Positions 2,732-16,892 of a stretch of 18,501 nucleotides of DNA are shown here, piece after piece. This stretch comes from Candidatus Omnitrophota bacterium (lineage in GTDB: Bacteria; Omnitrophota; Gorgyraeia; Gygaellales; Profunditerraquicolaceae): contig JBEKSD010000021.1 in assembly GCA_049517335.1 (NCBI GenBank), forward strand, positions 1 through 18,501, in the 5' to 3' direction. Under the pieces are notes generated by a model. The model did no database searches. It saw only the letters and a program-made list of their open reading frames with translations, and was not told the DNA's origin. Every line of letters starts with the position of its first letter. Within the stretch, counting starts at the first letter, position 1. The translations under genes and the position numbers were made by a program.

Positions 2732-3946
2732 ATGTTTGCGCTTTTAGGAAATCATAATATGAAAAGCAGAATATTTATTATTTGTATATTTATTATTGCA
2801 ATAACTTTTTTCGCAACTGGCATTTCATATAGCAAAGAATACATTTCTAGTTTACCAACGTTAATTATTTTTTACTCCCCTGGTTGCCACGATTGTATCC
2901 ACATAAAAAAAGAGGTAATGCCTATCATTGATAAAGAATTTAAAGATCGGATTAAGGTAGAATACCGTGATATTGATGATATCGAAAATTATAAGTTGAT
3001 GTTGAGCTTAGAAGAGAAATATCATGCCAAAATAAACAATGTTTTTCCAATATTTTTCTTCGAAGGCCACTTCTTAAATGGCGAGGGTAACGTTAAGAAT
3101 AACTTAATGTTGCTTCTTGCAACGACATCAATGGCTATTACCGATATGCGAAAAGAGGCTTTGCCAAAGATAGATTTAGTCAAGCGTTTCAGTGGCTTTA
3201 CGCCTCTTGCCCTTATCGCTGTAGGGTTAATTGACGGCATAAACCCTTGCGCGGTTACGGTTATTGTATTCTTCATGTCTTTTCTGGCTTTTCAGGGTTA
3301 CAGGAAGCGCGAAATAGTGGTCATTGGCCTGATTTTTATATTCTCGGTGTATCTAACCTACGTATTAATAGGCTTAGGGATTTTTGAATCCCTATATAAA
3401 TTACAGGGTTTCTGGCTACTCACAAAGATAATCAATATTACGGTTGGCGTTATCAGCATTGCCTTTAGCATATACGCACTGTATGATTTTATTCAATACA
3501 AAAAGACAAAGTCAACCGATGATATGCTTTTATCTTTGCCTAAGGGTATAAAGAATCAGATACATAAGGTTATCGGAGCGTATTATCGAGCGCATAATAA
3601 GCCTCACGGAAGCACTTTTAAAAAACATCTTTTGGGTCTGGCCTTAAGTGCCCTGATTACCGGATTTTTAGTTTCGGTGTTGGAGGCGGTTTGTATTGCC
3701 AAGATCTACCTACCTACCATAATTTTTGTTTTAAGAACCACAAGCCTTAAATTAAAAGCCTTGTCTTATCTTTTGTTGTATAACCTGCTGTTTGTTTTAC
3801 CTCTATTTGTAATATTTCTTTTTGCGCTTTTCGGTACGACTTCCGAACGTTTCTCCGTGATATTAAAAGGGCACCTTGGAACAATTAAGATATTAATGGG
3901 AATTATGTTTCTCGGCTTGGGTATATTCCTGATTTTACGGGCGTAG
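2732..3946 (+). CDS. Thioredoxin/glutaredoxin-fold domain fused to a CcdA/DsbD-like cytochrome c biogenesis transmembrane domain
   Basis: N-terminal signal/anchor, FYSPGCHDC (CxxC) and VFPIFF cis-Pro-like loop; TM domain with GLIDGINPCA and LEAVCIAKIYLP, the two conserved membrane Cys of CcdA-type carriers. Alternative start at ATG 2759. Confidence 0.85.
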   Translation: MFALLGNHNMKSRIFIICIFIIAITFFATGISYSKEYISSLPTLIIFYSPGCHDCIHIKKEVMPIIDKEFKDRIKVEYRDIDDIENYKLMLSLEEKYHAKINNVFPIFFFEGHFLNGEGNVKNNLMLLLATTSMAITDMRKEALPKIDLVKRFSGFTPLALIAVGLIDGINPCAVTVIVFFMSFLAFQGYRKREIVVIGLIFIFSVYLTYVLIGLGIFESLYKLQGFWLLTKIINITVGVISIAFSIYALYDFIQYKKTKSTDDMLLSLPKGIKNQIHKVIGAYYRAHNKPHGSTFKKHLLGLALSALITGFLVSVLEAVCIAKIYLPTIIFVLRTTSLKLKALSYLLLYNLLFVLPLFVIFLFALFGTTSERFSVILKGHLGTIKILMGIMFLGLGIFLILRA

Positions 3947-3987: not shown

Positions 3988-4380
3988 ATGCGCAGGATTA
4001 AGCTAAGGTATTTTTTTCTTATATTTTTATCTATCTTAGCTCTTTCGTGTTCTCAAAGAGATACCTCATCGCCTCCAATTTTAGAATCAAATATAAGTTA
4101 TGCCACTAATGTTAGGGCAGGCGATTTTGCTCCAGGGCAACTCCAAGCACATTATTTGAAGCACGGATATCAGTTTGGTAACATTACTCAAGTCCAGTAC
4201 CTTGAAAACGCACGAGAACTCTTAAATGCATCTGCAGGGAATGATATCTTAGAAAAAACAAGGTCTGATGGCGATATTTTACATTATAGAGTAAGTACCG
4301 GAGAGTTTGCAGTTATGGCCAGAGATGGACGGATTAAGACCTATTTTAAAGCGGATTATCAATACTGGATGAGACAATGA
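3988..4380 (+). CDS. Putative lipoprotein with a C-terminal nuclease-toxin-like domain
   Basis: Basic N-terminus, hydrophobic stretch and LALSC lipobox. The C-terminal pattern HYLKHGYQFG...QY...A...RSDGD...Y...TGEF...DGRIKTYFK...YW resembles small RNase-type tips of polymorphic toxins (recognised by eye). Confidence 0.6.
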   Translation: MRRIKLRYFFLIFLSILALSCSQRDTSSPPILESNISYATNVRAGDFAPGQLQAHYLKHGYQFGNITQVQYLENARELLNASAGNDILEKTRSDGDILHYRVSTGEFAVMARDGRIKTYFKADYQYWMRQ

Positions 4381-4631
4381 ACGAAAAGCATTATATATGT
4401 CCTGTATGCGGTTTTGATGCATTAAAAGAATTACCTTATGACAAGCGAAACACGCCTTCTTATGAGATTTGTCCGTGTTGTGGCTTTGAGTTTGGGTTTG
4501 ACGGGGTTAATAACCAAATAGCATTTACTGATTTTCGCCAGCGCTGGATTAAAAATGGTGCCCACTGGTTTATCCCAAAATTAAAGCCAAAGAATTGGCA
4601 TCTACGGAAACAATTGAATAATCTTCTATGA
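4377..4631 (+). CDS. CPCC-type cysteine-rich protein, putative cognate immunity protein
   Basis: CPVCGF...SYEICPCCGFEFGFD...RQRW...GAHWF...PKNW...QL; ATGA overlap with the upstream gene indicates translational coupling. Confidence 0.7.
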   Translation: MNEKHYICPVCGFDALKELPYDKRNTPSYEICPCCGFEFGFDGVNNQIAFTDFRQRWIKNGAHWFIPKLKPKNWHLRKQLNNLL

Positions 4632-4737
4632 ATCTTAAACCCACTGCCTCTTTGATGTTTTCATACCTGTTTAGAGAGAGTGTTTTTATGGTGAGCCCCT
4701 TCTGGGCGTCCTAGTTGGGCGCAACTAGCCGTAGAAA

Positions 4738-4760
4738 AGCATAATTCTTTATGCTACAAT
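4738..4760 (+). promoter_or_regulatory. Extended -10 promoter overlapped by a palindromic operator-like site
   Basis: TG-C-TACAAT at 4752-4760; perfect inverted repeat AGCATAA-ttct-TTATGCT at 4738-4755. Confidence 0.4.
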
Positions 4761-4806: not shown

Positions 4807-5886
4807 TTGAAGAAATCACTTCGTATTAGCACAGTTTTATTTATCGGCCTATTTACATTTTTATCTATTCTCTCTTTTATCTCGGCTGGACATGATCGGC
4901 CGCTTTTTTATGCTAAATTCATATGGTCTTTGCTGGTATCTTACCTTGGTTTTTGTATATATCGGAATGGAGTCATTTCAAAATACAGATCAATTCTGTT
5001 TATTCTAATTGCCTTTTTCTTTTTTCTAGAATTTAAATTTTTCCGTTTTATATCTCTTACTAGAACAACAATCCCTCCATATTGTCATATTGCCCAAGCA
5101 CCCACGCTGTTTAATTTCCTTTATAGCCAATTTTTGGCTATAACCAGCGGTGAGTGGGGGATATGGGGCGTTTTAACCCTGGGGTTTCTTTGGCTTTTAA
5201 TAATCTTTACGATAGGCCAGGGGATCTGTTCCTGGGTTTGTTTTTACGGTGGGATAGATGAAGCATGCTCAAAAATCGCAAGAAAACCGTTAATAAAATT
5301 AAAGATTCCCAGGCCCTGGCGCGACTTTCCTATAGCCTTTTTAATATTTCTTTTGGTTGTATCTTTTCTGCAAGGGCTGCCTGTTTTTTGTACCTGGTTT
5401 TGTCCTTTTAAACTAACAGAAGCTTTTTGGGACAGCGATCCGGTTATTAAGACTGCTCAAACCGCGTTATTTTGGTCAGCTTTAGCGGGATTTGTAATCA
5501 TACTTCCAATTCTGACTAAAAAAAGAACATTCTGTTCCCTTATTTGTCCTTTTGGCGCGCTTGTAAGTATCTGCGGCAAAGTTAGTCCCTATAAAGTAAC
5601 TATAAATAAAGAGAAATGTATACACTGCGGAAAATGTCAGGATGTTTGCCCCGTATTTGCGATAGAAAACAAGAATTCAGATAAATACAAAGTCTCTTCC
5701 TTTTGCAATAGATGTGGGAAGTGTATCGACACTTGTCCTGTTAATGCGATAAATATATTATCTGAACAAAGTGGGCAACAGATTGATACGAGGGCTATCT
5801 TCATTTTTCTCTCCCTCTTGGTAACCGGGGTCATATCAGGTTCTTTTGTTCCGTGGGTCTTTTTACAATTAATAGGTCTAAAATGA
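4807..5886 (+). CDS. Membrane 4Fe-4S binding protein (NapH/MauN/YccM-like)
   Basis: TM helices with CSWVC, CTWFCP and CSLICPFG motifs plus two ferredoxin motifs CIHCGKCQDVCP and CNRCGKCIDTCP; TTG start preceded by GAGGA. Confidence 0.9.
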   Translation: MKKSLRISTVLFIGLFTFLSILSFISAGHDRPLFYAKFIWSLLVSYLGFCIYRNGVISKYRSILFILIAFFFFLEFKFFRFISLTRTTIPPYCHIAQAPTLFNFLYSQFLAITSGEWGIWGVLTLGFLWLLIIFTIGQGICSWVCFYGGIDEACSKIARKPLIKLKIPRPWRDFPIAFLIFLLVVSFLQGLPVFCTWFCPFKLTEAFWDSDPVIKTAQTALFWSALAGFVIILPILTKKRTFCSLICPFGALVSICGKVSPYKVTINKEKCIHCGKCQDVCPVFAIENKNSDKYKVSSFCNRCGKCIDTCPVNAINILSEQSGQQIDTRAIFIFLSLLVTGVISGSFVPWVFLQLIGLK

Positions 5887-6500
5887 TCCGAATAATTTTA
5901 GAAGGTCTGATGCTGGGTTTGTCTGCCGGAATTTATTGCGTCGGTGCATGCCTTGTTTTCTTCATGCCTTATCTTTTGGTAGAGGGCAAGCAGAAGATAT
6001 TCGAAAACCTAAGGAAGATATTGTCATTTATGCTGGGACGGCTCATAGCGTATATCGCTTTTGCGCTTATCATTGGTTTTCTAGGGTCGTCTTATCAAAA
6101 TATTTTTACAGTCAGATTCTCATATATCTGTCTGATTGTAGCATCATTATTGATGTTGTTCTATTCGTTAGCCCATAATTTTAGAGATTCCAGGTTTTGT
6201 GTACCTTTTATTAATCGTTTTAGTCTGATGCGCATACCATTTTTTCTCGGCCTATTTACGGGGCTAAATCCATGTCCGCCGTTTTTGGTGGGGGCTACCC
6301 GGCTTTGGACCCTAAACAGTATCTTGGGAGGCGTTATATTATTTATCGCATTTTTTATTGGAACATCTGTTTATATGATTCCGTTGATCTTTATCTCTTA
6401 TTTCAACAAGAGCGAAAGGATTAAACAAATAGGCCTGATGGTGGCTTTGCTTTCTAGTCTTTGGTTCTTATTTGTGGGGATATCGGGGTTAATACACTAA
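5883..6500 (+). CDS. DsbD_2 / TauE-SafE-like membrane protein (CcdA-related)
   Basis: About 6 TM helices; GLSAGIYCVGAC, FMLGRLIAY and GLNPCPPF motifs. Start placed at ATG 5883 (ATGA overlap with the upstream stop) rather than the GTG at 5853. Confidence 0.8.
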   Translation: MIRIILEGLMLGLSAGIYCVGACLVFFMPYLLVEGKQKIFENLRKILSFMLGRLIAYIAFALIIGFLGSSYQNIFTVRFSYICLIVASLLMLFYSLAHNFRDSRFCVPFINRFSLMRIPFFLGLFTGLNPCPPFLVGATRLWTLNSILGGVILFIAFFIGTSVYMIPLIFISYFNKSERIKQIGLMVALLSSLWFLFVGISGLIH

Positions 6501-6518
6501 ACTTATCTACGATCGATT

Positions 6519-8702
6519 ATGTATAACTTTATATTTTTGTATTATGGTCTTTTGGCGATACTGACGCAACTCGTGGTTTTTAGAGAGCTGCTGATCCTGT
6601 TTTATGGCAGCGAACTCTTCCTTGGAACATTTTTATCTTCTTGGCTATTTTGGGTTGGCTTGGGGAGCCTGTTAGTACAGCGTTTATTAAAAAAAGAGTG
6701 GCCTGTTGAGGCGTATTTTTCTTATGGCTTTTTAGTAATCTCGTTATTGTTTCCCGCTATGATCTTGTTAATAAGGGCGAGTAAAAGCGTATTTGCTTTT
6801 GGAGAGTTCATAGGGCCTATCGGAACGGTCTTATACACGTTTAGCGTAATGAGTGTTCTTTGTTTTGTTATAGGCGGACAGTTTAGTTTAGCCTGTGCCG
6901 TAGCGTCTAATAAGATAAAAAGAGAAGCTGTTTTAGGCCGGGTTTATATGTGTGAGGCGCTAGGCGCGGTAATAGGAGGAGTGATATTTACTTACATGCT
7001 GATTGGCTTTGTACCGACATTTATTATTGCCCTAGCGCTATCTTTAGGATGTATTTTTGTAAGCTTCGGCACATTAATTAAAAAGATATCCTTAAGAAGC
7101 ATATTATTGATCGTAGCGGCCTTGGTAATATTATTTGTTAATTTTAGGGCCGAACCGGCGATAAACAGAATTGAATGGAAAAGATATCAATTCATTAAGC
7201 AGAAAGAAACGCGAAATACTACTTTATCTTTGGTAGCTATGGGAAGTATTAAAAATGTTTTTGTGGACGGAATGCTTTCAGCGAGTTTTCCTGAACCTGA
7301 AAGTTATGAGCCTGTAGCTCATTGGCCGCTACTTGCAAGTGCCGAACCAAACCAAATATTGATCATAGGAGATGCGTCCTTAGGTGTACTCAAAGAAGCC
7401 CTTAAACATGGCCCTAAACGAATAGATTATGTTGTGTTGGATAATTCATTTCTTAGTTTGGTAGGGTCTTATCTGGAGGCTGAAGATATTTCCGCTTTAA
7501 AGAATTTGGCTGTTCATAGCCATTATCTCGATTCGCGCACTTTTATCAGGAACAATAAGAATAAGTATGATGCTGTGATAATAAACATCCAAGAGGTTCC
7601 CAATCTTAAAACTAATAGATTTTATACCGAAGAATTCTATAGCCAGGTGAGACGAATATTAAAACCGAATGGGATATTGGGGTTAAGTGTTGTTTCATCC
7701 GAAAATTACTTATCTATGCAGACTAGGATCTTTAATGCGTCGGTGTACGATACATTAAAGTCTGTATTCAATACTGTAGAGGCAATCCCCGGAGATAGCC
7801 TTATGTTTCTCGCCAGCCCCTCGGCGATAGATATGCAAAAAGAAACGCTCCTGGAACGGTTCAATAAAAGGAACATCTCTAATCATTACGTTATTCCTTC
7901 TTACATTGAATATAAGCTTAAAGCCGAGCGCCGTACCGAACTAAAAAAGCTACTGGAAGGAACGGCTGGCGCAGAGATTAATAGGGATTTCAGGCCGACG
8001 ACTTGCTATTATTTTGCCAACTTCTGGCTGAATAAATTCACCTCCCCCTTAGGGTACCTTGTGGTGACTATCCTTTTTATTGCTGTCGCACTCGGCATCT
8101 TTAAAAAAAGGAGATCACTACTATTTTCCAGCGAGAGAAGAGAATTTATTCTTATATTTGTCCTTGGATTCATCAGCATATTACTAGAGTTGATACTTTT
8201 ATTGGGATATCAGATAATTTCAGGGTATGTTTATTGGCAGATGGGTGTCCTTTTTGCTTCATTCATGTCCGGATTATTCTTAGGTTCACTTTTAGGTAAT
8301 AGATCTAAAAACAATTCCCGGAAAAGACATTCTATTTCCCTGGTGATATTATCTTTAATTATCATAGAGCTATCTGTATGTACGGCTTATCTTTTACCGC
8401 ATTTGATTTATCTATCTACTCTTCAGAACATAACTATCTTTATTGCGTTTTTAGTCCTTATCGGGGCTATTGTCGGAGCCGCCTTTGTCATTACCGGTTT
8501 TCTTATTCGTGCAGATAATGTAATGGTAAAGGCAGGCAGCCTTTATGCGGCTGATCTTTGGGGCGCCGCACTTGGCGCAATACTTTCCACGAATTTTATA
8601 GCGCCTCTTTTTGGTATTTTAGGAGCGTTAAATCTTTCAGCCGTTATCGGATCGGCAGGATTGGTTATATTCTTGATTTTATCCGGGAAAACTAATCTAT
8701 GA
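6519..8702 (+). CDS. Membrane-embedded spermidine-synthase-like protein (TM-Rossmann-TM fusion) with degenerate catalytic motifs
   Basis: N-terminal TM block (QLVVFRELLILFYGSEL, VYMCEALGAVIGG); central SAM-fold region (ILIIGDAS, LKHG, DSRTFI, YDAVIIN, NRFYTEEFY, ILKPNGIL); INRDFRP; C-terminal TM block (LYAADLWGAALGA). Confidence 0.85.
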   Translation: MYNFIFLYYGLLAILTQLVVFRELLILFYGSELFLGTFLSSWLFWVGLGSLLVQRLLKKEWPVEAYFSYGFLVISLLFPAMILLIRASKSVFAFGEFIGPIGTVLYTFSVMSVLCFVIGGQFSLACAVASNKIKREAVLGRVYMCEALGAVIGGVIFTYMLIGFVPTFIIALALSLGCIFVSFGTLIKKISLRSILLIVAALVILFVNFRAEPAINRIEWKRYQFIKQKETRNTTLSLVAMGSIKNVFVDGMLSASFPEPESYEPVAHWPLLASAEPNQILIIGDASLGVLKEALKHGPKRIDYVVLDNSFLSLVGSYLEAEDISALKNLAVHSHYLDSRTFIRNNKNKYDAVIINIQEVPNLKTNRFYTEEFYSQVRRILKPNGILGLSVVSSENYLSMQTRIFNASVYDTLKSVFNTVEAIPGDSLMFLASPSAIDMQKETLLERFNKRNISNHYVIPSYIEYKLKAERRTELKKLLEGTAGAEINRDFRPTTCYYFANFWLNKFTSPLGYLVVTILFIAVALGIFKKRRSLLFSSERREFILIFVLGFISILLELILLLGYQIISGYVYWQMGVLFASFMSGLFLGSLLGNRSKNNSRKRHSISLVILSLIIIELSVCTAYLLPHLIYLSTLQNITIFIAFLVLIGAIVGAAFVITGFLIRADNVMVKAGSLYAADLWGAALGAILSTNFIAPLFGILGALNLSAVIGSAGLVIFLILSGKTNL

Positions 8703-9844
8703 TGGAAAAGGCAAGATTGTATCTCTTTATATTTTTAAACATTATTCTTTCCATAATCATTGTTTCTGTTATTGCGGTATATCCTCCTCCGCAGACAGTA
8801 AGCAGCATTATTCCTATTGACGGGATAAGGATTAGGCAGGCGGATTGGTGGAGGCAGGACTGTTTAGGCGTGCAGTGTGGATTATGCCCGTTTCGCTGTT
8901 TTCTTCCGGAAGGTAGCCGCGGTAGATGCCGGGTGAGGATGAACGTCGGAGGAAAACTTAGAACACTTGTTTACGGCCAGCCGGTGAGCGTACATATCGA
9001 CCCTATTGAAAAAAAGCCTGTCTATCATATGCTTCCCGGCAGTAGTATCTTTTCTATCGCTACTGTAGGATGCAATTTAAGATGTAGTTTTTGTCAGAAC
9101 TGGGAGATCTCACAGTGTAATCCCGAAGAAGCAAAGACTGCTGGCCAGATTTTAACTCCCGAGCAAGTGGTGGATGCGGCAATAGCAAATAATTGCAATT
9201 CTATTGCCTATACATATTCAGAACCAGTAGTATTTTATGAATATGTGTTGGATATTGCAAAGCTTGCCAAGCAAAAAGGCTTGAGGAATGTTCTGGTAAG
9301 TGCGGGTTATATAAACCGTAAGCCATTAAGAAAGCTTGTTCCTTATTTTGACGTCATCAAAATCGACCTTAAAGGTTTTAATGAACAATTTTACAAAAAA
9401 GTAGTAGGTGGTGATTTAAAAGAAGTCTTAGCCACTTTAAAAGAATTGCATAACCTTGGAGTTTTGACCGAGGTGGTCAACCTTGTCGTGCCGAGTTTAA
9501 ATGATGATATGCAAGATATAACCAGGATGTGTAAATGGATATATGATAATATGGGCCCGGACACGCCGCTTTTCTTCTCAAGATTTACTCCCCAGTACAG
9601 GTTAGGCAATCTGCCCGCTACTCCGATAGAGACATTAGAGAAGGCAAGAAAGATAGCAATGGACGTAGGGTTAAGATACGTATATATTGGTAATGTGCCG
9701 GGTCATCCGGCTGAAAACACCTATTGCCCGGGTTGTGGCAGGATGCTGATACACAGGTACGGTTATACGATACTGGAAAATAATATAAAAAATGGTAGGT
9801 GCATTTTTTGTGGTAAAAAAATACCTGGCATATGGGAGAATTGA
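8699..9844 (+). CDS. amrS: AmmeMemoRadiSam system radical SAM enzyme with an N-terminal membrane anchor
   Basis: CGLCPFRC...CRVR, HIDPIEKKPVYH, GCNLRCSFCQNWEISQ (CxxxCxxC), IAYTYSEP, IDLKGF, FSRFTPQY, YVYIGNVPG, TYCPGCG...CIFCG. ATGA overlap with the upstream gene. Confidence 0.95.
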   Translation: MMEKARLYLFIFLNIILSIIIVSVIAVYPPPQTVSSIIPIDGIRIRQADWWRQDCLGVQCGLCPFRCFLPEGSRGRCRVRMNVGGKLRTLVYGQPVSVHIDPIEKKPVYHMLPGSSIFSIATVGCNLRCSFCQNWEISQCNPEEAKTAGQILTPEQVVDAAIANNCNSIAYTYSEPVVFYEYVLDIAKLAKQKGLRNVLVSAGYINRKPLRKLVPYFDVIKIDLKGFNEQFYKKVVGGDLKEVLATLKELHNLGVLTEVVNLVVPSLNDDMQDITRMCKWIYDNMGPDTPLFFSRFTPQYRLGNLPATPIETLEKARKIAMDVGLRYVYIGNVPGHPAENTYCPGCGRMLIHRYGYTILENNIKNGRCIFCGKKIPGIWEN

Positions 9845-9858
9845 GGTATAATTATTCT

Positions 9859-11316
9859 ATGAAGAAAACAGTGCAAATAATTGTTTATTTGATATTTTGT
9901 TTAGGCATAGCGGTAAGCCCTTCTTTTGCAGAGGATGTAAAATTACCTAGTGCCGCTGGAAGTTTTTATCCGGATAATGCCCAGGAGTTATCAGATAAGA
10001 TTGATTCGTTAATCGCTAAGGCTAACCCTGAACAGATGCCGGGGGAAATTTTTGCTTTGATTTCGCCCCATGCCGGTTATGATTTCTCAGGTGGTGTAGC
10101 TGCATATGGATATAAACTCATCAAGGGCAAGAGTTATAAGACAGTTGTAGTTATCGGTCCCAGCCACTTTTTTGGTTTTTATGGCATATCGGTATATCCC
10201 AAGGGCGTATTTTATACTCCTTTAGGCGCCGTTGGGATTGATGAAGAATTTACTGCCCAGTTAATTGGAAAAGATAAAGATGTATTCTTTGAACCGCAGG
10301 CCTTTACCAAGGAGCATTCGCTAGAAGTAGAAATTCCTTTCCTTCAAAAAATACTTAAAGAGAATAGCTGGAAGCTGGTGCCGGTTATTATGGGAGATTG
10401 CAGTTTAGTGGAATGCAAGAGGTTTGCTGAACTGCTTAAGGATACCATAGGTTCGCGTAAAGATGTGTTAACAGTAGCTTCATCGGATATGTATCATGGT
10501 TATGATTATGATGAAGCGGAGGCTGTCGATAACCTTACCTTATCTTATTTAAAGAATATGGATGCCGAAGGTTTGTATAAGGGCTTAAGAGAAGGTAAAC
10601 TGCAGCTTTGTGGCGGGTTACCAGTAACTACTACATTACTCTTAGCAAAAGAAATGGGCCACAACACCATAAAACTTTTAGCTCATACAAATTCCGCTAA
10701 AGTTACCAAGAATAAAATCAAGGGTATCTGGACCGTAGGCTATTGTAGTATGGCTATTGATAACCCAGAGTTAAATAAGGAACAGCGAAAGAAATTGCTG
10801 CAGATTGCAAGGAGTTCGATTGAGCATTATCTATTACGTGGAGAGAAAATAAAACTAGAAGAAAAGAATCCATCCTTGTTGGTTCAGAGTGGCGCTTTTG
10901 TGACATTAAATAAGCATGGACAACTGCGTGGTTGCATAGGCAGCCTTAAAGGAAATCAGCCGCTTTATTTGACTATAAGAGATATGGCAATTGAGGCGGC
11001 AGTGAATGATTGGCGTTTTTCAAAAGTCGAATTATCGGAACTGAAGGATATAGAGATAGAAATTTCAGTACTTTCGCCACTAAAGAGAATTTCTTCTCCT
11101 GATCAGATAATGTTGGGGGTCCATGGAGTATTGATAAAATCTGGATTTAATACGGGAGTTTTTCTACCGCAGGTTGCAACAGAGACAGGGTGGTCAAAGG
11201 AGAGATTTCTTTCTGAATTGTGTAGCCAGAAGGCCGGCTTATCTTCCGATGCATGGAAAAATCCTTCCACAGAGCTGTATATATTTACTGCTGAGGTTTT
11301 TTCGGAAGCGAATTAA
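9859..11316 (+). CDS. amrB: Fused AmmeMemoRadiSam protein B (MEMO1-like) and protein A (AMMECR1-like) with a signal peptide
   Basis: MEMO motifs AGSFYP, ISPHAGY, GPSH, EHSLEVEIPFLQ, SSDMYH, LCG, VGY; AMMECR1 motifs GAFVTL, LRGCIG, EISVLSP, FLPQVA, KAGL. Start placed at ATG 9859 (MKKTVQ...PSFA-E signal peptide); the ORF track starts at 9832. Confidence 0.93.
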   Translation: MKKTVQIIVYLIFCLGIAVSPSFAEDVKLPSAAGSFYPDNAQELSDKIDSLIAKANPEQMPGEIFALISPHAGYDFSGGVAAYGYKLIKGKSYKTVVVIGPSHFFGFYGISVYPKGVFYTPLGAVGIDEEFTAQLIGKDKDVFFEPQAFTKEHSLEVEIPFLQKILKENSWKLVPVIMGDCSLVECKRFAELLKDTIGSRKDVLTVASSDMYHGYDYDEAEAVDNLTLSYLKNMDAEGLYKGLREGKLQLCGGLPVTTTLLLAKEMGHNTIKLLAHTNSAKVTKNKIKGIWTVGYCSMAIDNPELNKEQRKKLLQIARSSIEHYLLRGEKIKLEEKNPSLLVQSGAFVTLNKHGQLRGCIGSLKGNQPLYLTIRDMAIEAAVNDWRFSKVELSELKDIEIEISVLSPLKRISSPDQIMLGVHGVLIKSGFNTGVFLPQVATETGWSKERFLSELCSQKAGLSSDAWKNPSTELYIFTAEVFSEAN

Positions 11317-11395
11317 AGAAAGATAGATATCGGTCTCTCTCGATTTAGCGAATAGTGCGCAGTTTTAAGCAAAAAAATGACCGGACAAAACGAAC

Positions 11396-11455
11396 AATCC
11401 TGCTTAGTAATTGCTACAAAATTCTCTTTGATAATTTTGTAGCACTCGCAGGATT
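11396..11455. repeat. Long inverted repeat / hairpin downstream of the amr operon
   Basis: Perfect 12-bp TGCTACAAAATT-9 nt-AATTTTGTAGCA (11412-11444) nested inside an 8-bp AATCCTGC/GCAGGATT stem. Confidence 0.6.
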
Positions 11456-11638
11456 TTGCTAGTTAAAAGCTTAATATCCTTCTCGTATGGGTCGAAGGTA
11501 AACCTCTTTCTATTTATAGGGGTGTATTATAAGGTGAATATGGTAGTTATCAGGAAAATTCGGCTTTTAGATAGGTCATTTCCTCGCGTAATTTGAGCAC
11601 ACTAGTAATATCATTCTCCTCGAGTATTGGGAGAGTTT

Positions 11639-11676
11639 AAAGGCTATTGATCAGATACGGTTAATAGCCTTTTTTT
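11639..11676 (+). terminator. Rho-independent terminator
   Basis: AAAGGCTATTGA...TTAATAGCC followed by T7. Confidence 0.7.
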
Positions 11677-11759
11677 CTACCTATTTACAGAGAGTATTTT
11701 TTATAGGTGTCCTAAATAAGAATATTTGTAACCAGCTATTGAAGCTTAATAAAATTATG

Positions 11760-11787
11760 TTGTTAAGCATTCAGTTAGTGGTATAAT
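11760..11787 (+). promoter_or_regulatory. Sigma70 promoter with extended -10
   Basis: TTGTTA-16 nt-TATAAT with TG at the extended position, ahead of the AAGGAGGT RBS of the gene at 11816. Confidence 0.55.
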
Positions 11788-11815
11788 AAATAAATTTTGG
11801 AAAGGAGGTGAAAAT

Positions 11816-12175
11816 ATGAAAAAGACACTTCTCGTAGTACTTGCTTTTACCTTTGTCAGTTCCTTGTGTTTTGCCCAACAGCCAACAGCACCGGTTAGCC
11901 AAGCTGCTCCAAAATCAGTTGAAACTAAAAGTTTTGTAGGCAAGATAGATACTATTATTTTGGCTGATGCTGTAAAAGGCACGCACTCAGCAATTGCGGT
12001 TGTAGATGAAAAAGGACAAAAAATGAACTTTACGGTCAAAATCAGCACTGTCATCTCTGCGAAAGATGGGAAGAAGCTTACCTTTAGCGAGTTAAAGAAA
12101 GATAACAAAGTCATCGTAGAGTATATAACGACTGAAAAAGGCACTAATAGAGCGCAATCTATTAAATTAGTATAA
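11816..12175 (+). CDS. Small secreted protein, probably a beta-barrel (OB-like) fold; function unknown
   Basis: Strong RBS AAGGAGGT; Sec signal ending LCFA-Q; low-complexity linker followed by a beta-rich domain. Confidence 0.8.
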   Translation: MKKTLLVVLAFTFVSSLCFAQQPTAPVSQAAPKSVETKSFVGKIDTIILADAVKGTHSAIAVVDEKGQKMNFTVKISTVISAKDGKKLTFSELKKDNKVIVEYITTEKGTNRAQSIKLV

Positions 12176-12202
12176 TAATAGATAAGTTGTTATAACGGAT
12201 TA

Positions 12203-12240
12203 CGGCAGGCAGATTTAATTTATGCCTGCCGCTTTCGTTT
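12203..12240 (+). terminator. Rho-independent terminator
   Basis: CGGCAGGCA-11 nt-TGCCTGCCG followed by CTTTCGTTT. Confidence 0.7.
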
Positions 12241-12264
12241 ATAATCGATAAGTTATTAGAAATT

Positions 12265-13191
12265 ATGAAAAAGAAAATGCAAGTTTTAATAATTCTATTT
12301 ATTGTCATCGGTATAGGTTTATTTTTCTTATATAAAAATTATGAAAATCGTGGTCGGACAACCAAAAGTGGTCAGGTATTATTAGAAAATAAGAGGCAGG
12401 CATGGCTAAAGTTGAGGGATACCCTGGAAAATAAAATCAGACATTTTAAAGGAACAGTTAGTCTTGTGATTACAGATTTAGATAACAATTGGGAGATCGC
12501 CTTTAATAAGGATACCCTGATTCCTTCCGCAAGTTTAGTAAAAATCCCCATTATGCTTTCTTATTTTTATGCTACACAGGAAGGCAAGGTAAGTTTAAGA
12601 GACACTATAAAGCTTAAAACTTGTGAGAAAGTAGCTGGGTCAAGAGTATTGGGAAAGGAACCGTCAGGTTCCCTGTTTACCATAGAAGAACTATTTGAAC
12701 CTATGATTACTCAAAGCGATAATGCTGCCGCCAATATACTTATAGATTTCTTAGGATTCGATACGCTAAATATCTATTTTAAAAAAATGGGTTTAAAAAA
12801 TACTAATATTGCCCGTAAGATGATGGATTTTAAAGAAAGAAGGGAAGGCGATGAAAACTATACTACAGCGCAAGATATGGCTTATTTGCTGGAAGAACTA
12901 TATCATAAGAACTTTTTAAATAAAGATATTTCTGAAAAGTGTCTGGAATTATTAGGACAACAGAAAATTAACGACCGCATTCCTAAAAAACTTCCTAAAA
13001 ATGGGACCTTTATTGCTCATAAGACAGGTCTAGAAAGACATATTTGTCATGATGTGGGAATAGTGTTTACCAATAAAGGAAATTTTTTAATTTGTGTTCT
13101 AGTAAAGCACGACAACAAACTTGCAAAACCCGCGAAAAAACTTATTTCGGATATCGCACTGCTCGTGTATAATTATTATCAAAGTCTCTAA
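12265..13191 (+). CDS. Class A beta-lactamase-related serine hydrolase (PBP-A-like), membrane anchored
   Basis: SxxK (ASLVK), SDN and HKTG motifs; N-terminal TM helix; the omega-loop region reads ARKMMD, with no evident Glu166 equivalent. Confidence 0.9.
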   Translation: MKKKMQVLIILFIVIGIGLFFLYKNYENRGRTTKSGQVLLENKRQAWLKLRDTLENKIRHFKGTVSLVITDLDNNWEIAFNKDTLIPSASLVKIPIMLSYFYATQEGKVSLRDTIKLKTCEKVAGSRVLGKEPSGSLFTIEELFEPMITQSDNAAANILIDFLGFDTLNIYFKKMGLKNTNIARKMMDFKERREGDENYTTAQDMAYLLEELYHKNFLNKDISEKCLELLGQQKINDRIPKKLPKNGTFIAHKTGLERHICHDVGIVFTNKGNFLICVLVKHDNKLAKPAKKLISDIALLVYNYYQSL

Positions 13192-13230
13192 AGACTATAA
13201 CTGAAACAGGCAGTTGGATCTTGAATCAGA

Positions 13231-13974
13231 ATGTTGCAGATGAGAACAATAGGAATAAAATATCGATTTTTTGCAATAGCGGTTTTTTGTATTGCTTTAA
13301 TTTTATCTGTAAATAAAGTCTATGCCAGTTTGGATAAAAAACACAATGAGGTAGGCCTTGTATATTGGCACGGCGATATAGACCAACCTAAAATTGCCCT
13401 CACTTTTGACGATGGACCCAATGAGCCTTATACAACGGAAATTCTTGATATATTAAAGAAATATAACGTGAAAGCAACCTTCTTTGTCTTAGGGAAAAAT
13501 GTCGAGCGTTATCCGGATACAGCTAGGAGAATTGTTAAAGAAGGCCATGTTATTGGCAACCATACGTACGACCACCCTTATTTATTACTGCAAAGTAAGT
13601 CGCATATTAAATATGAGATACGGAAAGCAGAGCAAGCAATTATGGTAGCTACAGGTATGAAGCCGCATCTATTTAGGTCGCCGTATGGCGTAGATAATTC
13701 TTGGATATATCATGCCGCTCGAGACTTCGGATATGTAACCATTGAATGGTCAGTAACCGGCAATAATGGAGGCAAAGAAATATCCCCTGATGAAATTACA
13801 AAGAAGATTTTAAGCGGAGTAAAAAACGGATCAATAATACTTCTTCATGATGGAGATCGACTTATCAAAGGAGCCAACCGCAGAAATATTGTAAAAGCTT
13901 TACCGTTTATTATCGAATCGTTACAACATAAGGGGTATCAGTTTCTTACGGTGTCAAAATTGTTAGGTCTTTAA
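13231..13974 (+). CDS. NodB/CE4 polysaccharide (peptidoglycan) deacetylase, exported
   Basis: TFDDGP, GNHTYDHP, FRSPYG and IILLHDG motifs; N-terminal signal ending VYA. Confidence 0.93.
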   Translation: MLQMRTIGIKYRFFAIAVFCIALILSVNKVYASLDKKHNEVGLVYWHGDIDQPKIALTFDDGPNEPYTTEILDILKKYNVKATFFVLGKNVERYPDTARRIVKEGHVIGNHTYDHPYLLLQSKSHIKYEIRKAEQAIMVATGMKPHLFRSPYGVDNSWIYHAARDFGYVTIEWSVTGNNGGKEISPDEITKKILSGVKNGSIILLHDGDRLIKGANRRNIVKALPFIIESLQHKGYQFLTVSKLLGL

Positions 13975-14023
13975 GACGAGGAAGGTCGGCTAAAATCAAT
14001 AAATTTGAAGTAAGGAGGTAAAT

Positions 14024-14431
14024 ATGAATAAACTAAAGGTGTTAGGTTTGGTAACCGTTACTATAATGTTCTGTTCGGTCATTGCTTTTGCCCAAGATTC
14101 TAGCGAGAAGAAGGAACTCACGATAGAGGAAAAAACGAATGAGAAACAAATAGAAAAAGAACGCATGGGTGGCATGGTGATGCAGATGATGGGGACGATA
14201 CAGAAACAGATAGTTGCTACCAATGACGGCGGGGTTATTGTTATGGCAGGTAATAAGCTTTTCAAATACGACAAAGACCTGAATTTCGTAAAAGAAGTTG
14301 AATTAAAAACAGCTGTTGAATTAAAAGTGGATGCTGGGTCTATGCAGGAAATGATAAAAAGCATGAAAGAAAAATACGGAAAGCATGGTAAAATGACACA
14401 AGGAGAAAGCCAAGAAACAGAAAAGAAATAA
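14024..14431 (+). CDS. Secreted hypothetical protein with a Met-rich segment
   Basis: RBS AAGGAGGT; signal peptide ending IAFA-Q; RMGGMVMQMMG then VATNDGGVIVMAGNKLFKYDKDL. Confidence 0.8.
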   Translation: MNKLKVLGLVTVTIMFCSVIAFAQDSSEKKELTIEEKTNEKQIEKERMGGMVMQMMGTIQKQIVATNDGGVIVMAGNKLFKYDKDLNFVKEVELKTAVELKVDAGSMQEMIKSMKEKYGKHGKMTQGESQETEKK

Positions 14432-14536
14432 ATATAATAATTACCAGTTAGAAGTGGTAAGATACGGTTAGAATAGCAGTAAAGTTCAAGGTAACTTTCT
14501 TAAAGTAAGGGGTTAATTTTTCGATAGGAGGAATCA

Positions 14537-15259
14537 ATGGAAAACTTAAAGTTATCCGATAAATATAAGAATATTCTTCAAAAACTCACTCAAGACTTAA
14601 AGGATGTTTATCAGGAAGGATTGGTGTCGATAATTCTTTATGGTAGCGCAGTAAGCGGAGAATTTGTGGATAAACATTCAAATTTGAATCTGCTTGTAGT
14701 ATTGAAAAGCACAGACTTAGAGAATTTAAAGAAATCATCAAAGCTGATACGTAAATTTAATATGATTAATACCTTGTTTTTAACAGAAAATTATATTGCC
14801 AATTCCATAGACATTTTTCCTATTGAATTTCTAGATATACAGGAAAATCATTTTGTAATATACGGTAAGAATATCCTAAAAGATATCCATATTGATATGT
14901 GTAATTTACGATTTCAGTGTGAACACGAACTAAAAGCAAAACTGCTTAAATTAAGGCAGGCATACTTAATGCTTCACGATAATGCTACTACGCTTAGGAA
15001 TTTACTATTTTTATCATTTACCTCAATTTTACATATAATAAGAAATGTTTTACGTTTGAAAGGGAAGGAACCACCTTATTTAAAACAGGATATTTTAAAA
15101 GAAATTGGTATGGAATTTAAAATTGATATTATACTTTGGGAAAAAATATTAGCTGCTAAAAATAAAAATGTAAAATTAAGCGGGAAAGAAATTGAACAAT
15201 TATTCATTAGTTTTGTTAGAGAATTAGAGTCGATAGTTGCTATTATTGATAAGTTATAA
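14537..15259 (+). CDS. Nucleotidyltransferase-fold protein with a C-terminal helical domain
   Basis: SIILYGSAVSGEF...SNLNLLVVL, DIFPIEFLDI and NLRFQCEHELK motifs; AGGAGG RBS. Confidence 0.8.
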   Translation: MENLKLSDKYKNILQKLTQDLKDVYQEGLVSIILYGSAVSGEFVDKHSNLNLLVVLKSTDLENLKKSSKLIRKFNMINTLFLTENYIANSIDIFPIEFLDIQENHFVIYGKNILKDIHIDMCNLRFQCEHELKAKLLKLRQAYLMLHDNATTLRNLLFLSFTSILHIIRNVLRLKGKEPPYLKQDILKEIGMEFKIDIILWEKILAAKNKNVKLSGKEIEQLFISFVRELESIVAIIDKL

Positions 15260-15263
15260 GTAT

Positions 15264-16010
15264 ATGCGTAAAATATTTCTTACATTTTATTTCCTTATTT
15301 TTACTCTTTTGGGTTATGCCCAAAATGTTCCCCAACCGGTAGGCTGGGTCAATGACTTTGCAAAGGTTATTGATAAAGGAAATACCGATAAACTCAGCTC
15401 TTTAATTGAAGAAGTAGAACAAAAGACGACTACGGAAATTGCTGTAGTAACAATTAATTCCATCGCCCCTTATGATGAAAAAGAATATGCAAGACTTCTT
15501 TTTGATAATTGGAAGCTGGGGAAGAAAGGAAAAGACAATGGTGTTTTAGTACTTTTATCGGTTAAAGAAAGACGCTGGCGTATTGAGACTGGATATGGAG
15601 TGGAAGGAGTTTTACCAGATGGTCTATGCGGCGAGATTGGCCGAAACTATATGGTACCGTATTTTAAAGAAGGTAAGTACGGGGAAGGTTTATATCAAGG
15701 TATATGCGCCATCGCGAATATTATTGCTAAAGATACGCATGTTACTTTGGCTGGACTAGGTAATTTTGAAGAAATTACCACGGAAAACCAGTCTTCATCG
15801 AGTATGCCCAATGCTTTAGGAACGTTGGTTATTATCATTATTATCGTATTATTTATTGTGATAAGTAATTTGGGAACATATAGAAACAGATATTCCGGCG
15901 GCGGTTACTATGGCGGTTCCTGGGGTGGTGGTTTTGGAAGCGGAGGAGGCGGTTTTGGAGGTTTTGGCGGAGGGGGAGGCGGTGGCGGCGGTGCCGGAGG
16001 TGGATTTTAG
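15264..16010 (+). CDS. TPM-domain (YgcG-like) membrane protein with a Gly-rich tail
   Basis: VNDFAKVI, EIAVVTI, WKLGKKGKDNGVLVLL, RIETGYGVEGVLPDG, one TM helix, then GGFGGFGGGGGGGGGAGGGF. Start placed at ATG 15264. Confidence 0.92.
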   Translation: MRKIFLTFYFLIFTLLGYAQNVPQPVGWVNDFAKVIDKGNTDKLSSLIEEVEQKTTTEIAVVTINSIAPYDEKEYARLLFDNWKLGKKGKDNGVLVLLSVKERRWRIETGYGVEGVLPDGLCGEIGRNYMVPYFKEGKYGEGLYQGICAIANIIAKDTHVTLAGLGNFEEITTENQSSSSMPNALGTLVIIIIIVLFIVISNLGTYRNRYSGGGYYGGSWGGGFGSGGGGFGGFGGGGGGGGGAGGGF

Positions 16011-16022
16011 AAAGGAGAAAAA

Positions 16023-16589
16023 ATGAAAAGTATTCTTATAGGATTAGCGATAGTTGTTCTTATCGTAGTCTTTGTTATCATGGGTTTTGCAGGAGTTTAT
16101 AATAGCATTGTCTCAAAACAGGAAACAATCACTGCCAAATGGGCGCAGGTAGAAAATCAATTGCAGAGACGCAATGACTTGATACCAAATTTAGTCAGTA
16201 CAGTTAAAGGTTACGCTGCACATGAAAAAACTGTTTTGGAAGATATCACCAATGCCCGTTCTCAATGGACAAAAGCAAGCTCAATGGAAGAGAAAGTTAA
16301 AGCAGCAGGGGCAATAGATAGAGCATTGGGTCGTCTTCTTATGGTTACGGAAAATTACCCAAATTTAAAAGCAGACCAGACATTCTTGAAACTTATGGAT
16401 GAACTATCTGGCACTGAAAATCGTATCTCAGTAGAAAGGATGCGGTATAACGAGGCTGTCAGAGATTATAATGTTACTGTAAGAATGTTCCCGGGTAATA
16501 TTGTGGCAGGAATGTTTGGTTATAAGGTGGCCACAGAATACTTCAAAGCAGAAGAAAAAGCAAAAACTGTTCCCGAAGTAAAGTTCTGA
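16023..16589 (+). CDS. lemA: LemA family protein
   Basis: WAQVENQLQRRNDLIPNLVSTVKGYAAHE, ENYPNLKA, ELSGTENRI, RYNEAV, FPGNIVA, PEVKF. Confidence 0.96.
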   Translation: MKSILIGLAIVVLIVVFVIMGFAGVYNSIVSKQETITAKWAQVENQLQRRNDLIPNLVSTVKGYAAHEKTVLEDITNARSQWTKASSMEEKVKAAGAIDRALGRLLMVTENYPNLKADQTFLKLMDELSGTENRISVERMRYNEAVRDYNVTVRMFPGNIVAGMFGYKVATEYFKAEEKAKTVPEVKF

Positions 16590-16660
16590 ATTCGTCCATG
16601 ATAGGTGGATAGGCTAAGGATATAAAGAAATGGAAGCTTACCTTCTGGGGGGGAGTGGGA

Positions 16661-16762
16661 AGGGATAGCTCTTAAATTCTACCATAGCTGTGTGTAAAGA
16701 GGTCGTCTCCTTCTATAATCGTTCCGCTATTCCCAAAAATATTTCTTACTACTCCATAAATT
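16661..16762. repeat. Diverged dispersed repeat, copy B (homologous to 2186-2293)
   Basis: Same orientation as copy A; shared core TACCA(A)TAGCTGTGT and a second block TCTTA...CA.AAATT. Confidence 0.55.
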
Positions 16763-16782
16763 ATTTAATCACGTAATTTTTT

Positions 16783-16813
16783 TGAAACTTTTTCTTAAGT
16801 TATGTTGTCTAAT
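16783..16813 (+). promoter_or_regulatory. ECF sigma-type promoter
   Basis: TGAAAC-17 nt-TGTCTAAT; the same motifs and spacing occur upstream of the ECF sigma gene. Confidence 0.7.
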
Positions 16814-16892
16814 CTAATAGAAACAGGAAGAATATCTATATTTCATCAAGTTATTTTATTGTAGAAAAAGAGAACAAGGAAGAAGGATATTC

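Follow-up and report, generated by a model that had tools for sequence, protein, structure and literature searches.

A candidate extracytoplasmic AmmeMemoRadiSam system with putative membrane supply lines in an Omnitrophota bacterium

Introduction

The AmmeMemoRadiSam trio, comprised of a radical S-adenosylmethionine (SAM) enzyme (AmrS), a Memo-like protein (AmrB) and an AMMECR1-like protein (AmrA), was described together with its gene-neighbourhood link in 2007, in a paper that also describes the radical SAM motif and the cysteine of the AMMECR1 R-G-C-h-G motif (PMC2034487). According to a citing passage in PMC7159879, the trio was described again in 2019. Here we analyse an operon of this family from a Candidatus Omnitrophota bacterium, carried on an 18.5-kb contig (JBEKSD010000021.1, 18,501 nucleotides (nt)) that was taken whole and is hereafter called the window; the host genome is 1.45 Mb and 92% complete. 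The operon (4807-11316) encodes AmrS and an AmrB-AmrA fusion (AmrBA) alongside three membrane proteins, and is a variant of a known but unexplained system.

The abstract of Burroughs et al. 2019 reportedly links Memo to nucleotide-base and isoprenoid modification. Radical SAM enzymes depend on Fe-S assembly, on SAM and on a low-potential reductant, usually flavodoxin in the cytoplasm, and for that reason they are generally regarded as confined to the cytoplasm. Membrane polyferredoxins such as NapH/NapG, NosR/NosH and MauN feed periplasmic enzymes, and hydrogenase small subunits, NapG and Rieske proteins are Fe-S proteins exported or anchored through the twin-arginine translocation (Tat) pathway. 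Our literature searches returned no description of a periplasmic, exported, extracytoplasmic or secreted radical SAM enzyme, with the reservation that the Memo-AMMECR1 gene contexts treated by Burroughs et al. 2019 may include exported or membrane-linked ones; they also returned no paper joining radical SAM, twin-arginine and AMMECR1, and none joining a fused spermidine synthase/major facilitator with radical SAM.

Results

A five-gene operon whose order recurs in relatives

With somewhat better than even confidence, we read the operon as an extracytoplasmic version of AmmeMemoRadiSam plus its supply lines. Its genes and their principal parts are the following.

4807-5886, + strand: NapH/NosR-type membrane polyferredoxin, 359 amino acids (aa) (TIGR02163, PF00037 and PF12801 matches)
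5883-6500, + strand: DsbD_2 (CcdA-like) membrane protein, 205 aa (PF13386, 70 bits; cut-off 24.9)
6519-8702, + strand: transporter of the major facilitator superfamily (MFS) fold with an inserted SpeE-fold domain (PF01564, 63 bits; AlphaFold2 (AF2) fold)
7143-8048, + strand: SpeE-fold domain of that protein, residues 209-510, predicted periplasmic
8699-9844, + strand: AmrS, radical SAM member of the AmmeMemoRadiSam trio, 381 aa (TIGR04337, 369 bits, 369.8 when the whole genome was searched; cut-off 220)
8699-8875, + strand: N-terminal extension of AmrS, about 59 residues (alignment, hydropathy)
9859-11316, + strand: AmrB (Memo-like)-AmrA (AMMECR1-like) fusion, 485 aa (TIGR04336 and TIGR04335)
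9859-9930, + strand: putative Sec-type signal peptide of AmrBA, 24 residues, with a signal peptidase I-type site (read from the translation)

An earlier prediction, made from the sequence alone, had described five co-oriented, tightly packed genes, and all five open reading frames (ORFs) are present on the + strand at the places claimed. The ATGA start/stop overlaps between napH-like and dsbD_2 (5883-5886) and between speE-like and amrS (8699-8702) can be read directly from the letters, as can the 18-nt gap between dsbD_2 and the speE-like gene (6501-6518). The 14-nt gap between amrS and amrBA (9845-9858) holds given an amrBA start at ATG 9859, which has a GAGG 13 nt upstream, the longest ORF beginning at 9832; for dsbD_2, ATG 5883 is preferred to GTG 5853 and agrees with the N-termini of homologues. 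Pfam and NCBIfam matches likewise bear out the five protein identities originally proposed, with one refinement for the SpeE-like protein that is given below.

We compared the window with 80 AmrS loci from species-representative genomes and with a control set of 80 metagenome contigs that partly overlaps the genome set (L100 and L104, for example, are the contigs of L015 and L018). The gene order napH-dsbD_2-speE-amrS recurs in L004, the nearest locus of the genome set, and is kept in all seven closest-relative metagenome contigs (76-90% identity) with enough upstream DNA, one of which, L084, also has amrBA downstream as in the window. Judging by this repetition of the four-gene order in L004 and in 7/7 relatives' contigs, the operon arrangement is not chance. 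L004 has no amrBA within 10 kb of amrS; 3' of its amrS, in the place that amrBA occupies in the window, lie six consecutive ORFs (11273-17064) of 282-345 aa with signal-like N-termini.

Export-type leaders on both Amr proteins and a leaderless second set

The Amr proteins resemble the canonical system closely, as all three families score above their curated cut-offs, the radical SAM motif and the AMMECR1 cysteine are present and the B-A fusion is a known form; they differ from it in bearing export-type leaders and in being accompanied by three membrane proteins. The CX3CX2C motif of AmrS is intact, with C125, C129 and C132 invariant across 20 sequences. AmrBA reaches 243 bits against TIGR04336 (cut-off 26) at 9946-10758 and 179 bits against TIGR04335 (cut-off 99) at 10792-11301, and the AMMECR1 motif reads L-R-G-C-I-G.

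The original prediction had noted hydrophobic N-terminal leaders on both Amr proteins, and these hold up, by hydropathy and charge, as a very hydrophobic helix on AmrS and a probable Sec-type signal on AmrBA. The AmrS extension consists of a basic n-region, the helix, a conserved P-P-P and a linker; it contains K-A-R and no twin arginine. The n-region is the more positively charged flank, which predicts an N-in orientation with the catalytic domain outside, and, as read by hydropathy and charge, the P-P-P is not accompanied by a -3/-1 cleavage site of small residues. At the start of AmrBA, a basic n-region precedes a hydrophobic core, which is followed by a cleavage-type site, S-F-A/E-D.

Elsewhere in the genome lie a second AmrS (contig C3, 56638-57636, 340 aa), a second AmrB (contig C2, 139596-140360) and a second AmrA (contig C24, 5393-5902), and none of these three has a hydrophobic N-terminus; in alignment the operon AmrS carries about 50 additional N-terminal residues relative to the second AmrS. 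Since leaderless AmrS, AmrB and AmrA are found in the same genome, the leaders are specific additions to the operon copies, and the genome carries a cytoplasmic-type and an export-type Amr set. When the genome was scanned for other proteins with Fe-S motifs and an N-terminal hydrophobic leader, only AmrS, the NapH-like protein and one probable mis-start were recovered, which gives no indication that Fe-S proteins are exported through Sec more generally.

After its own family, the next-best NCBIfam matches of AmrS are the glycyl-radical activating enzymes PflA, YjjW and NrdG (PFLA, 74 bits), so that hydrogen abstraction on a bound partner is the nearest characterised chemistry. AmrS differs from these enzymes in scoring far under their cut-offs, in possessing extra N- and C-terminal Cys clusters and in having no glycyl-radical enzyme gene near the operon. 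The SpeE-fold domain was considered as a glycyl-radical substrate of AmrS and rejected, as no residue of the interface predicted below is among the invariant or nearly invariant glycines of a 24-sequence alignment.

Leader type and TatC are linked among relatives

A search of 5.8 billion proteins with AmrS gave best 120 matches many of which are 370-446 aa long, the organisms named among the matches listed being Omnitrophota, Elusimicrobiota and Planctomycetota. All 20 matches that were read have the N-terminal extension, and two from Planctomycetota have a plain R-R-R-F-L Tat motif. The original prediction would have been weakened by leaders missing from close homologues; instead they are conserved and include textbook Tat and Sec signals.

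The 80 genome loci, for which the search alignment included the leaderless paralogue, give 81 AmrS with the window added. Classed by a Tat regular expression and hydropathy over the region before the first Cys cluster, these comprise 37 with a Tat motif (RR or KR), 33 with a hydrophobic leader lacking twin arginine (non-RR), 10 leaderless and 1 cut by a contig end, after two rows with KR and a very hydrophobic core and one contig-cut row had been moved. Core hydropathy spans 1.3-2.1 in the Tat class versus 1.7-3.4 in the non-RR class, and less hydrophobic cores are the usual distinction between Tat and Sec signals. TatC (PF00902) is found in 56/80 genomes behind the AmrS loci (26/50 and 30/30). 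Every genome with a Tat-motif AmrS has it (37/37), as do 9/10 genomes with a leaderless AmrS, versus 9/33 with a non-RR AmrS; the window's genome is one of the 24/33 in which it was not found. That genome has no match to PF00902 or to PF02416 (TatA), which at 92% completeness is no proof of absence.

Four relatives, L005-L008, have leaders with RRxFL, a hydrophobic core and P-P-P at positions that align with the window leader, and these leaders look uncleaved, like Rieske anchors. From the RRxFL and the same P-P-P at aligned places, the window AmrS anchor looks like a Tat signal anchor rebuilt for Sec or the signal recognition particle (SRP). The likeness to Tat-exported Fe-S proteins and Tat signal anchors thus lies in the relatives, with their RRxFL, weakly hydrophobic cores and TatC, whereas the window leader lacks RR, has a far more hydrophobic core and comes from a genome in which Tat was not found. 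Several Omnitrophota AmrS in TatC-negative genomes begin with ordinary cleavable Sec peptides with small residues at -3/-1, which would be hard to read as cytoplasmic tethers, and most of the 38 neighbouring AmrBA fusions that were read start with Sec or lipobox signals.

In a tree of the AmrS core, built by a quick method with SH-aLRT support only, the window belongs to a clade with good support whose 17 rows comprise 11 non-RR, 4 Tat and 2 leaderless AmrS. Five changes of the Tat label are required on this tree, at least three of them forced by well-supported branches; leader switching therefore occurred more than once. Eight leaderless AmrS form a clade of their own, some members of which adjoin lipoprotein AmrBA and SpeE-like genes.

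Two further leader features were seen in these sets. Eight Tat-class AmrS (L040, L042, L058, L066, L068-L071) conserve a C-x-x-C-H after A-R-(F/Y)-W, between the Tat signal and the radical SAM core; this motif might bind haem c or serve as a metal ligand. In three loci, leaderless amrS and lipoprotein-type amrBA are separated by a small ORF (73-95 codons) with R-R-x-F and a hydrophobic stretch, which may represent a signal supplied in trans or an artefact:

L050, 10981-11208: R-R-x-F small ORF
L064, 6235-6456: R-R-x-F small ORF
L046, 1309-1596: R-R-x-F small ORF

An MFS-fold transporter carrying a SpeE-fold domain predicted to face outward and to bind AmrS

The membrane spermidine-synthase-like protein of the original prediction does have a SpeE fold and membrane helices, and is better termed an MFS transporter with a non-canonical SpeE-fold domain. 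The AF2 model (24 homologues; predicted local distance difference test (pLDDT) 88, predicted template modelling score (pTM) 0.89) has seven helices, a 300-residue domain and further helices, making 12 core helices plus two extra ones (residues 190-208 and 511-530), seven on each side of the inserted domain. In VIA-align, the structures nearest to the MFS part are amine and drug exporters, led by VMAT2 (9kqa; Z 29.7, root-mean-square deviation (rmsd) 3.6, 343 aligned) and SotB (6kki; Z 28.8, rmsd 3.8, 354 aligned) and including VAChT and NorA, with many more MFS entries after them; no MFS Pfam family is matched at E <= 0.01. The inserted domain matches spermidine synthase 1uir (Foldseek E 6.5e-13, TMt 0.72; VIA Z 31.1).

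In MFS proteins both ends and the central loop are cytoplasmic. Here one extra helix leaves from the sixth helix and another returns to the seventh, and so by helix parity the inserted SpeE-fold domain is predicted to lie outside. Mean K+R counts over the 24 homologues agree with this orientation, being 2.58, 1.25, 1.0, 2.67, 1.96 and 1.29 in the predicted inner loops (sum 10.75) and 0.25, 1.88, 0.62, 0.71 and 0.38 in the predicted outer loops (sum 3.84).

The domain is not a standard aminopropyltransferase. It falls short of the equivalog scores of TIGR00417 (69 versus 250 bits), PRK00811 (80 versus 260) and PRK03612 (103 versus 472). In spermidine synthases the Asp of GGGDG is specific for decarboxylated SAM and the Asp of D-S-x-D-P is catalytic; the window reads G-D-A-S-L-G and N-I-Q-E-V-P at these places, the GGGDG Asp is absent in 24/24 SpeE-like homologues and the first catalytic Asp is not conserved. 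Conserved among the homologues are D-x-R, an N-R pair and an acidic residue immediately before a Pro. The protein shares an MFS part, a SpeE fold and partial model matches with NF037959 (fused MFS/spermidine synthase; 25.4 bits versus a cut-off of 40, residues 333-421 matched only) and PRK03612 proteins, and differs in the placement of its SpeE domain, which two extra helices carry between the MFS halves.

The complex modelling proposed along with the original prediction points to an AmrS-SpeE pair. AmrS (residues 30-381) folded with the SpeE-fold domain (209-510) gave ipSAE values of 0.76, 0.77 and 0.75, with at least 80% of contacts shared between runs and partner pLDDT of at least 83, and the best of three controls gave 0.00; the ipSAE mark is reached by 58/80 solved complexes and 2/110 mismatched pairs, and is only a rough guide here, where our own alignments were used. 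The model supports binding of AmrS to the SpeE-fold domain. We know of no solved complex between the AmrS and SpeE-fold families, and a pass from the model's memory therefore seems unlikely. On AmrS, the predicted interface includes the radical SAM cluster loop (121-145) and the D-P-I-E-K-K-P region of the family; on the SpeE side it includes the active-site face (241-262, 358-360, 392-402 and 456-471). The original prediction placed the catalytic domains outside the cytoplasm, which agrees with a partner domain that is predicted both to face outward and to bind AmrS. Two independent lines, its own leader family and a partner whose domain lies outside, thus place the AmrS domain outside.

A polyferredoxin and a candidate thiol carrier with invariant cysteines

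About seven hydrophobic segments and three CX3C(P) motifs can be read in the NapH-like protein, which also carries two 4Fe-4S motifs of the form CX2CX2CX3CP ahead of its last helix. Fourteen Cys are invariant among 15 homologues, namely C141/C145, C195/C199-P, C243/C247-P and the eight 4Fe-4S Cys. By hydropathy the 4Fe-4S domain sits after a K-K-R loop, which predicts that it is on the inner side. Since its TIGR02163 score is under the cut-off (89 versus 213 bits; NF007013, 75 versus 234), we call the protein NapH-like rather than an equivalog. It shares CX3CP motifs, two 4Fe-4S motifs and a membrane core with NapH/NapG, NosR/NosH and MauN, and the periplasmic FMN_bind domain typical of NosR is fused to its relatives; it differs in extra N-terminal helices, a C-terminal helix, a third CX3CP, the lack of any nap, nos or mau gene near the operon, and a proposed client that is a radical SAM enzyme. 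An AF2 model of this protein was dropped for topology, with a mean pLDDT of 62.8 (15 homologues) and values below 50 over the CX3CP regions.

The DsbD_2 protein has C-x3-C in helix 1 and C-x-P in helix 4, and these three Cys are invariant in 19/19 Amr-linked homologues. It resembles CcdA, DsbD and ScsB in its DsbD_2 domain and in the placement of Cys in the first and fourth helices, and some relatives match DsbD_TM too; it differs in having C-x3-C rather than a single Cys in helix 1 and in that the operon encodes no thioredoxin-like partner. A metal or other transport role would be an alternative for this protein. The gene adjoins 21/33 non-RR AmrS loci versus 3/37 Tat and 0/10 leaderless ones, and the DsbD_2-linked loci are spread over four separate clades of the AmrS tree. 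The link to non-Tat leaders would fit a need for outward thiol reduction when a Cys-rich enzyme crosses unfolded.

The membrane genes accompany leader-bearing AmrS and are fused to one another in some relatives

Neighbours were counted with hidden Markov models built from the first matches and run over all ORFs of the AmrS loci. SpeE-like, NapH-like and AmrBA genes were found, respectively, in 12, 7 and 23 of the 33 non-RR loci, in 11, 10 and 12 of the 37 Tat loci, and in 5, 1 and 5 of the 10 leaderless loci. All three membrane genes stand beside a leader-bearing AmrS in nine loci from three phyla (the window, L004, L005, L007, L008, L017, L018, L021 and L022). Genomes whose amrS has no SpeE-like neighbour usually carry the gene at another place, and matches reach the membrane parts in 42/50 genomes (ranges by eye).

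The metagenome contigs comprise 29 non-RR, 36 leaderless and 7 Tat rows, together with 7 that are cut and 1 that lacks the Cys motif. SpeE-like, NapH-like and DsbD_2 genes occur in 20, 13 and 15 of the non-RR rows and in 2, 1 and 1 of the leaderless rows; by eye, the leaderless matches trace to L109, a borderline hydrophobic form with P-P-P, and to L124, with an R-R-E-C-L start, both of them misclassified, and 0/34 is left without these two. The co-occurrence anticipated in the original prediction is therefore seen, as the membrane genes accompany amr genes that bear leaders and, in metagenome contigs, are all but missing next to ordinary leaderless ones.

Fusions in relatives tie the three membrane proteins to one another:

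L029, 1744-3435: DsbD_2+FMN_bind+Fer4_5 fusion
L031, 5585-7252: DsbD_2+FMN_bind+Fer4_5 fusion
L082, 12072-15243: SpeE+FMN_bind+Fer4_5 fusion
L037, 8254-10005: FMN_bind+Fer4_5+Fer4 fusion

A protein in L035 has the same length and DsbD_2 match as the L029 and L031 fusions, FMN_bind and Fer4_5 having been scanned in the latter only. NosR, RnfG and NqrC have FMN_bind as their periplasmic flavin domain, and, flavodoxin being the usual cytoplasmic reductant of radical SAM enzymes, such a domain in the periplasm would be a fitting stand-in. Seven Desulfobaccales-type loci (L041, L055, L056, L059-L061 and L080) have a short NapH-like gene (~295 aa) directly upstream of a Tat-signal amrS, with no amrBA or SpeE-like gene within 10 kb.

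Surroundings of the operon

Two pattern matches flank the operon:

4732-4760: promoter-like site (pattern match only)
11639-11672, + strand: terminator-like hairpin with a 14-bp stem and T run (pattern match only)

The hairpin is likely the operon end, and the ~320 nt between the amrBA stop and the hairpin (11317-11638) are without a + strand ORF of at least 80 aa. Upstream, a 404-aa protein (2732-3946, +) has an N-terminal hydrophobic segment, a C-x-x-C thioredoxin/glutaredoxin-like stretch (weak sub-cut-off Pfam matches) and a multi-helix part with N-P-C that resembles the DsbD/CcdA core; no homologue of it was found among the 80 related loci. Two small genes separate it from the operon. The first (3988-4380, +) encodes 130 aa with a lipobox-like sequence at the start and matches no family; the second (4377-4631, +) overlaps the first and encodes an 84-aa protein that is Cys-rich and zinc-ribbon-like and matches CPCC and zf-IS66 weakly. 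Downstream, a class A beta-lactamase-fold protein (12265-13191, +; PF13354, 197 bits; NF033103, 131 bits, cut-off of 200 not reached) is followed by a polysaccharide deacetylase (13231-13974, +), and the pair is likely concerned with envelope upkeep and not part of the operon. A TPM-domain protein adjoins a LemA protein (15237-16589, +), and the two form a common pair.

Discussion

An extracytoplasmic site of action is, in our view, somewhat more likely than not in this organism, and more likely still in the Tat-type relatives. An uncleaved signal anchor at its N-terminus, descended from a Tat signal anchor still present in relatives, would fix AmrS to the inner membrane on the outer side, and Sec would release AmrB-AmrA into the periplasm. 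The MFS-fold protein may export a small cationic molecule, and its outward SpeE-fold domain would dock on the cluster-loop/substrate face of AmrS and hand the molecule over; SAM is the favoured molecule, an amine or other substrate being the alternative. The NapH/NosR-type polyferredoxin would pass low-potential electrons from its cytoplasmic 4Fe-4S domain through the CX3CP motifs to the exported radical SAM cluster, an electron path across the membrane that is assumed by analogy to NapH and NosR. DsbD_2 would carry thiol-reducing power outward and keep the AmrS Cys and the AMMECR1 catalytic Cys reduced, a role that would matter most where AmrS is exported unfolded.

Gene order, families, leader types and their link to TatC, co-occurrence, fusions, the MFS and SpeE fold, the parity topology and the AmrS-SpeE interface come from computation. 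From these we infer protein location, electron path, transporter cargo and Fe-S acquisition without Tat. The envelope-localised radical SAM machine of the original prediction accordingly gains support from leaders, co-occurrence and predicted SpeE docking, the roles it gave to the membrane proteins and its target belonging with the inferred parts.

Several observations weigh against an extracytoplasmic system. We know of no extracytoplasmic Fe-S assembly nor of a route for clusters into a Sec-exported protein, and, with no TatC or TatA found and no RR in the leader, AmrS would probably have to cross unfolded in this organism. Neither a periplasmic SAM pool nor a SAM exporter is known to us, and SAM binding by the window's SpeE-fold copy is itself doubtful, since the glycine loop, which most SpeE-like relatives keep along with the ribose-binding Glu, is degenerate in this copy and the Glu is gone. 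The NapH-like ferredoxin domain is predicted cytoplasmic and could equally serve an AmrS on the inner face, and quinol would be too weak a reductant. Residues of the predicted interface are conserved at 0.83 versus 0.77 for the rest among leader-type AmrS, and the leaderless paralogue matches the consensus at 0.43 there versus 0.46 elsewhere; the interface is thus not clearly more leader-type-specific than the remaining AmrS. Leaderless AmrS stand beside exported AmrBA and SpeE-like genes in L037, L050, L064 and L082, and in L011 elsewhere in the tree, and so AmrS and its partners may not always share one compartment, or AmrS may hitch-hike. Finally, the leader classes derive from a regular expression and hydropathy rather than SignalP or TatP, the TatC-negative calls from genomes of unstated completeness (the window's own being 92%), and the contingency tests between leaders and neighbours ignore phylogeny.

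One rival reading puts AmrS on the cytoplasmic face, its N-terminal helix a mere tether (N-out/C-in or peripheral). Clusters, SAM and electrons, the last from the NapH-like ferredoxin domain, would then all be obtained inside, and AmrS would act on a membrane-embedded or exported substrate whose modification AmrB-AmrA would complete outside. We judge this unlikely. It sits well with a genome in which TatA and TatC were not found, a leader without RR, Fe-S assembly and SAM known only in the cytoplasm, a 4Fe-4S domain predicted inside after its K-K-R loop and the leaderless AmrS beside exported AmrBA. The basic n-region, however, predicts N-in; orthologues carry true Tat motifs, all in TatC-positive genomes, and a sister clade has cleavable Sec peptides. 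The predicted SpeE partner domain is outside by MFS topology and helix parity, and the link between DsbD_2 and non-Tat leaders would be left without a role.

Another possibility is that the five genes are mere neighbours, NapH-like and DsbD_2 serving envelope redox upkeep and the MFS-SpeE protein being an unrelated polyamine synthase or exporter. NapH/NosR and CcdA-type proteins do work for a wide range of periplasmic systems, a further DsbD-like gene lies in the window (2732-3946), and amrBA is not adjacent in most close relatives. We nevertheless find this very improbable: translational overlaps join the genes, the four-gene order is kept in L004 and in every long-enough close-relative contig, adjacency recurs in several phyla and as fusions, the membrane genes are essentially absent beside ordinary leaderless AmrS, the SpeE domain lacks aminopropyltransferase residues and the model supports an AmrS-SpeE interface. 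About as improbable, in our estimate, is an AmrS that is Sec-exported but cluster-less, either serving as a scaffold without radical chemistry or decaying as the relic of an ancestor that depended on Tat. Its attraction is that Tat was not found, that the leader resembles a degenerate Tat motif and that the SpeE glycine loop is degenerate in the window copy; yet the cluster Cys and family-invariant residues are all intact, with 76-90% identity across the closest relatives, the same design persists in many Tat-less genomes, and dedicated DsbD_2 and NapH genes are retained.

Within the extracytoplasmic reading, the boldest form for Tat-less bacteria is one that we put forward tentatively and hold to be rather doubtful as a whole. 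In it, a radical SAM enzyme would be Sec-exported unfolded and gain its Fe-S clusters outside, DsbD_2 would keep the AmrS Cys reduced while a NapH/NosR-type wire reduces the cluster, and an MFS transporter with an outward SpeE-fold domain would export SAM and hand it to AmrS. If true, it would be a first in three respects, for Fe-S maturation outside the cytoplasm, for a transporter that exports SAM and for radical SAM chemistry in the periplasm.

The present analysis adds a Tat-less anchor-type form of the system and two associations, of leader type with TatC and of DsbD_2 with non-Tat leaders. It also assigns the membrane part of the SpeE-like protein to the MFS, and contributes the fusions, an AmrS-SpeE contact prediction with controls and the leaderless second set in the same genome. 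An exported branch would raise the questions of how electrons of about -450 mV reach the periplasm, whether SAM is exported and by what route Sec-exported proteins acquire Fe-S clusters in bacteria without Tat. If true, a widespread and conserved exported branch, with an electron wire, a thiol carrier and a transporter-borne adenosyl-fold domain, would overturn the assumption that radical SAM enzymes are strictly cytoplasmic. It would also offer a new way into the Memo/AMMECR1/radical SAM trio, which has long lacked an explanation and whose eukaryotic relatives are linked to disease, by directing attention to a substrate on the envelope side and to defined partners.

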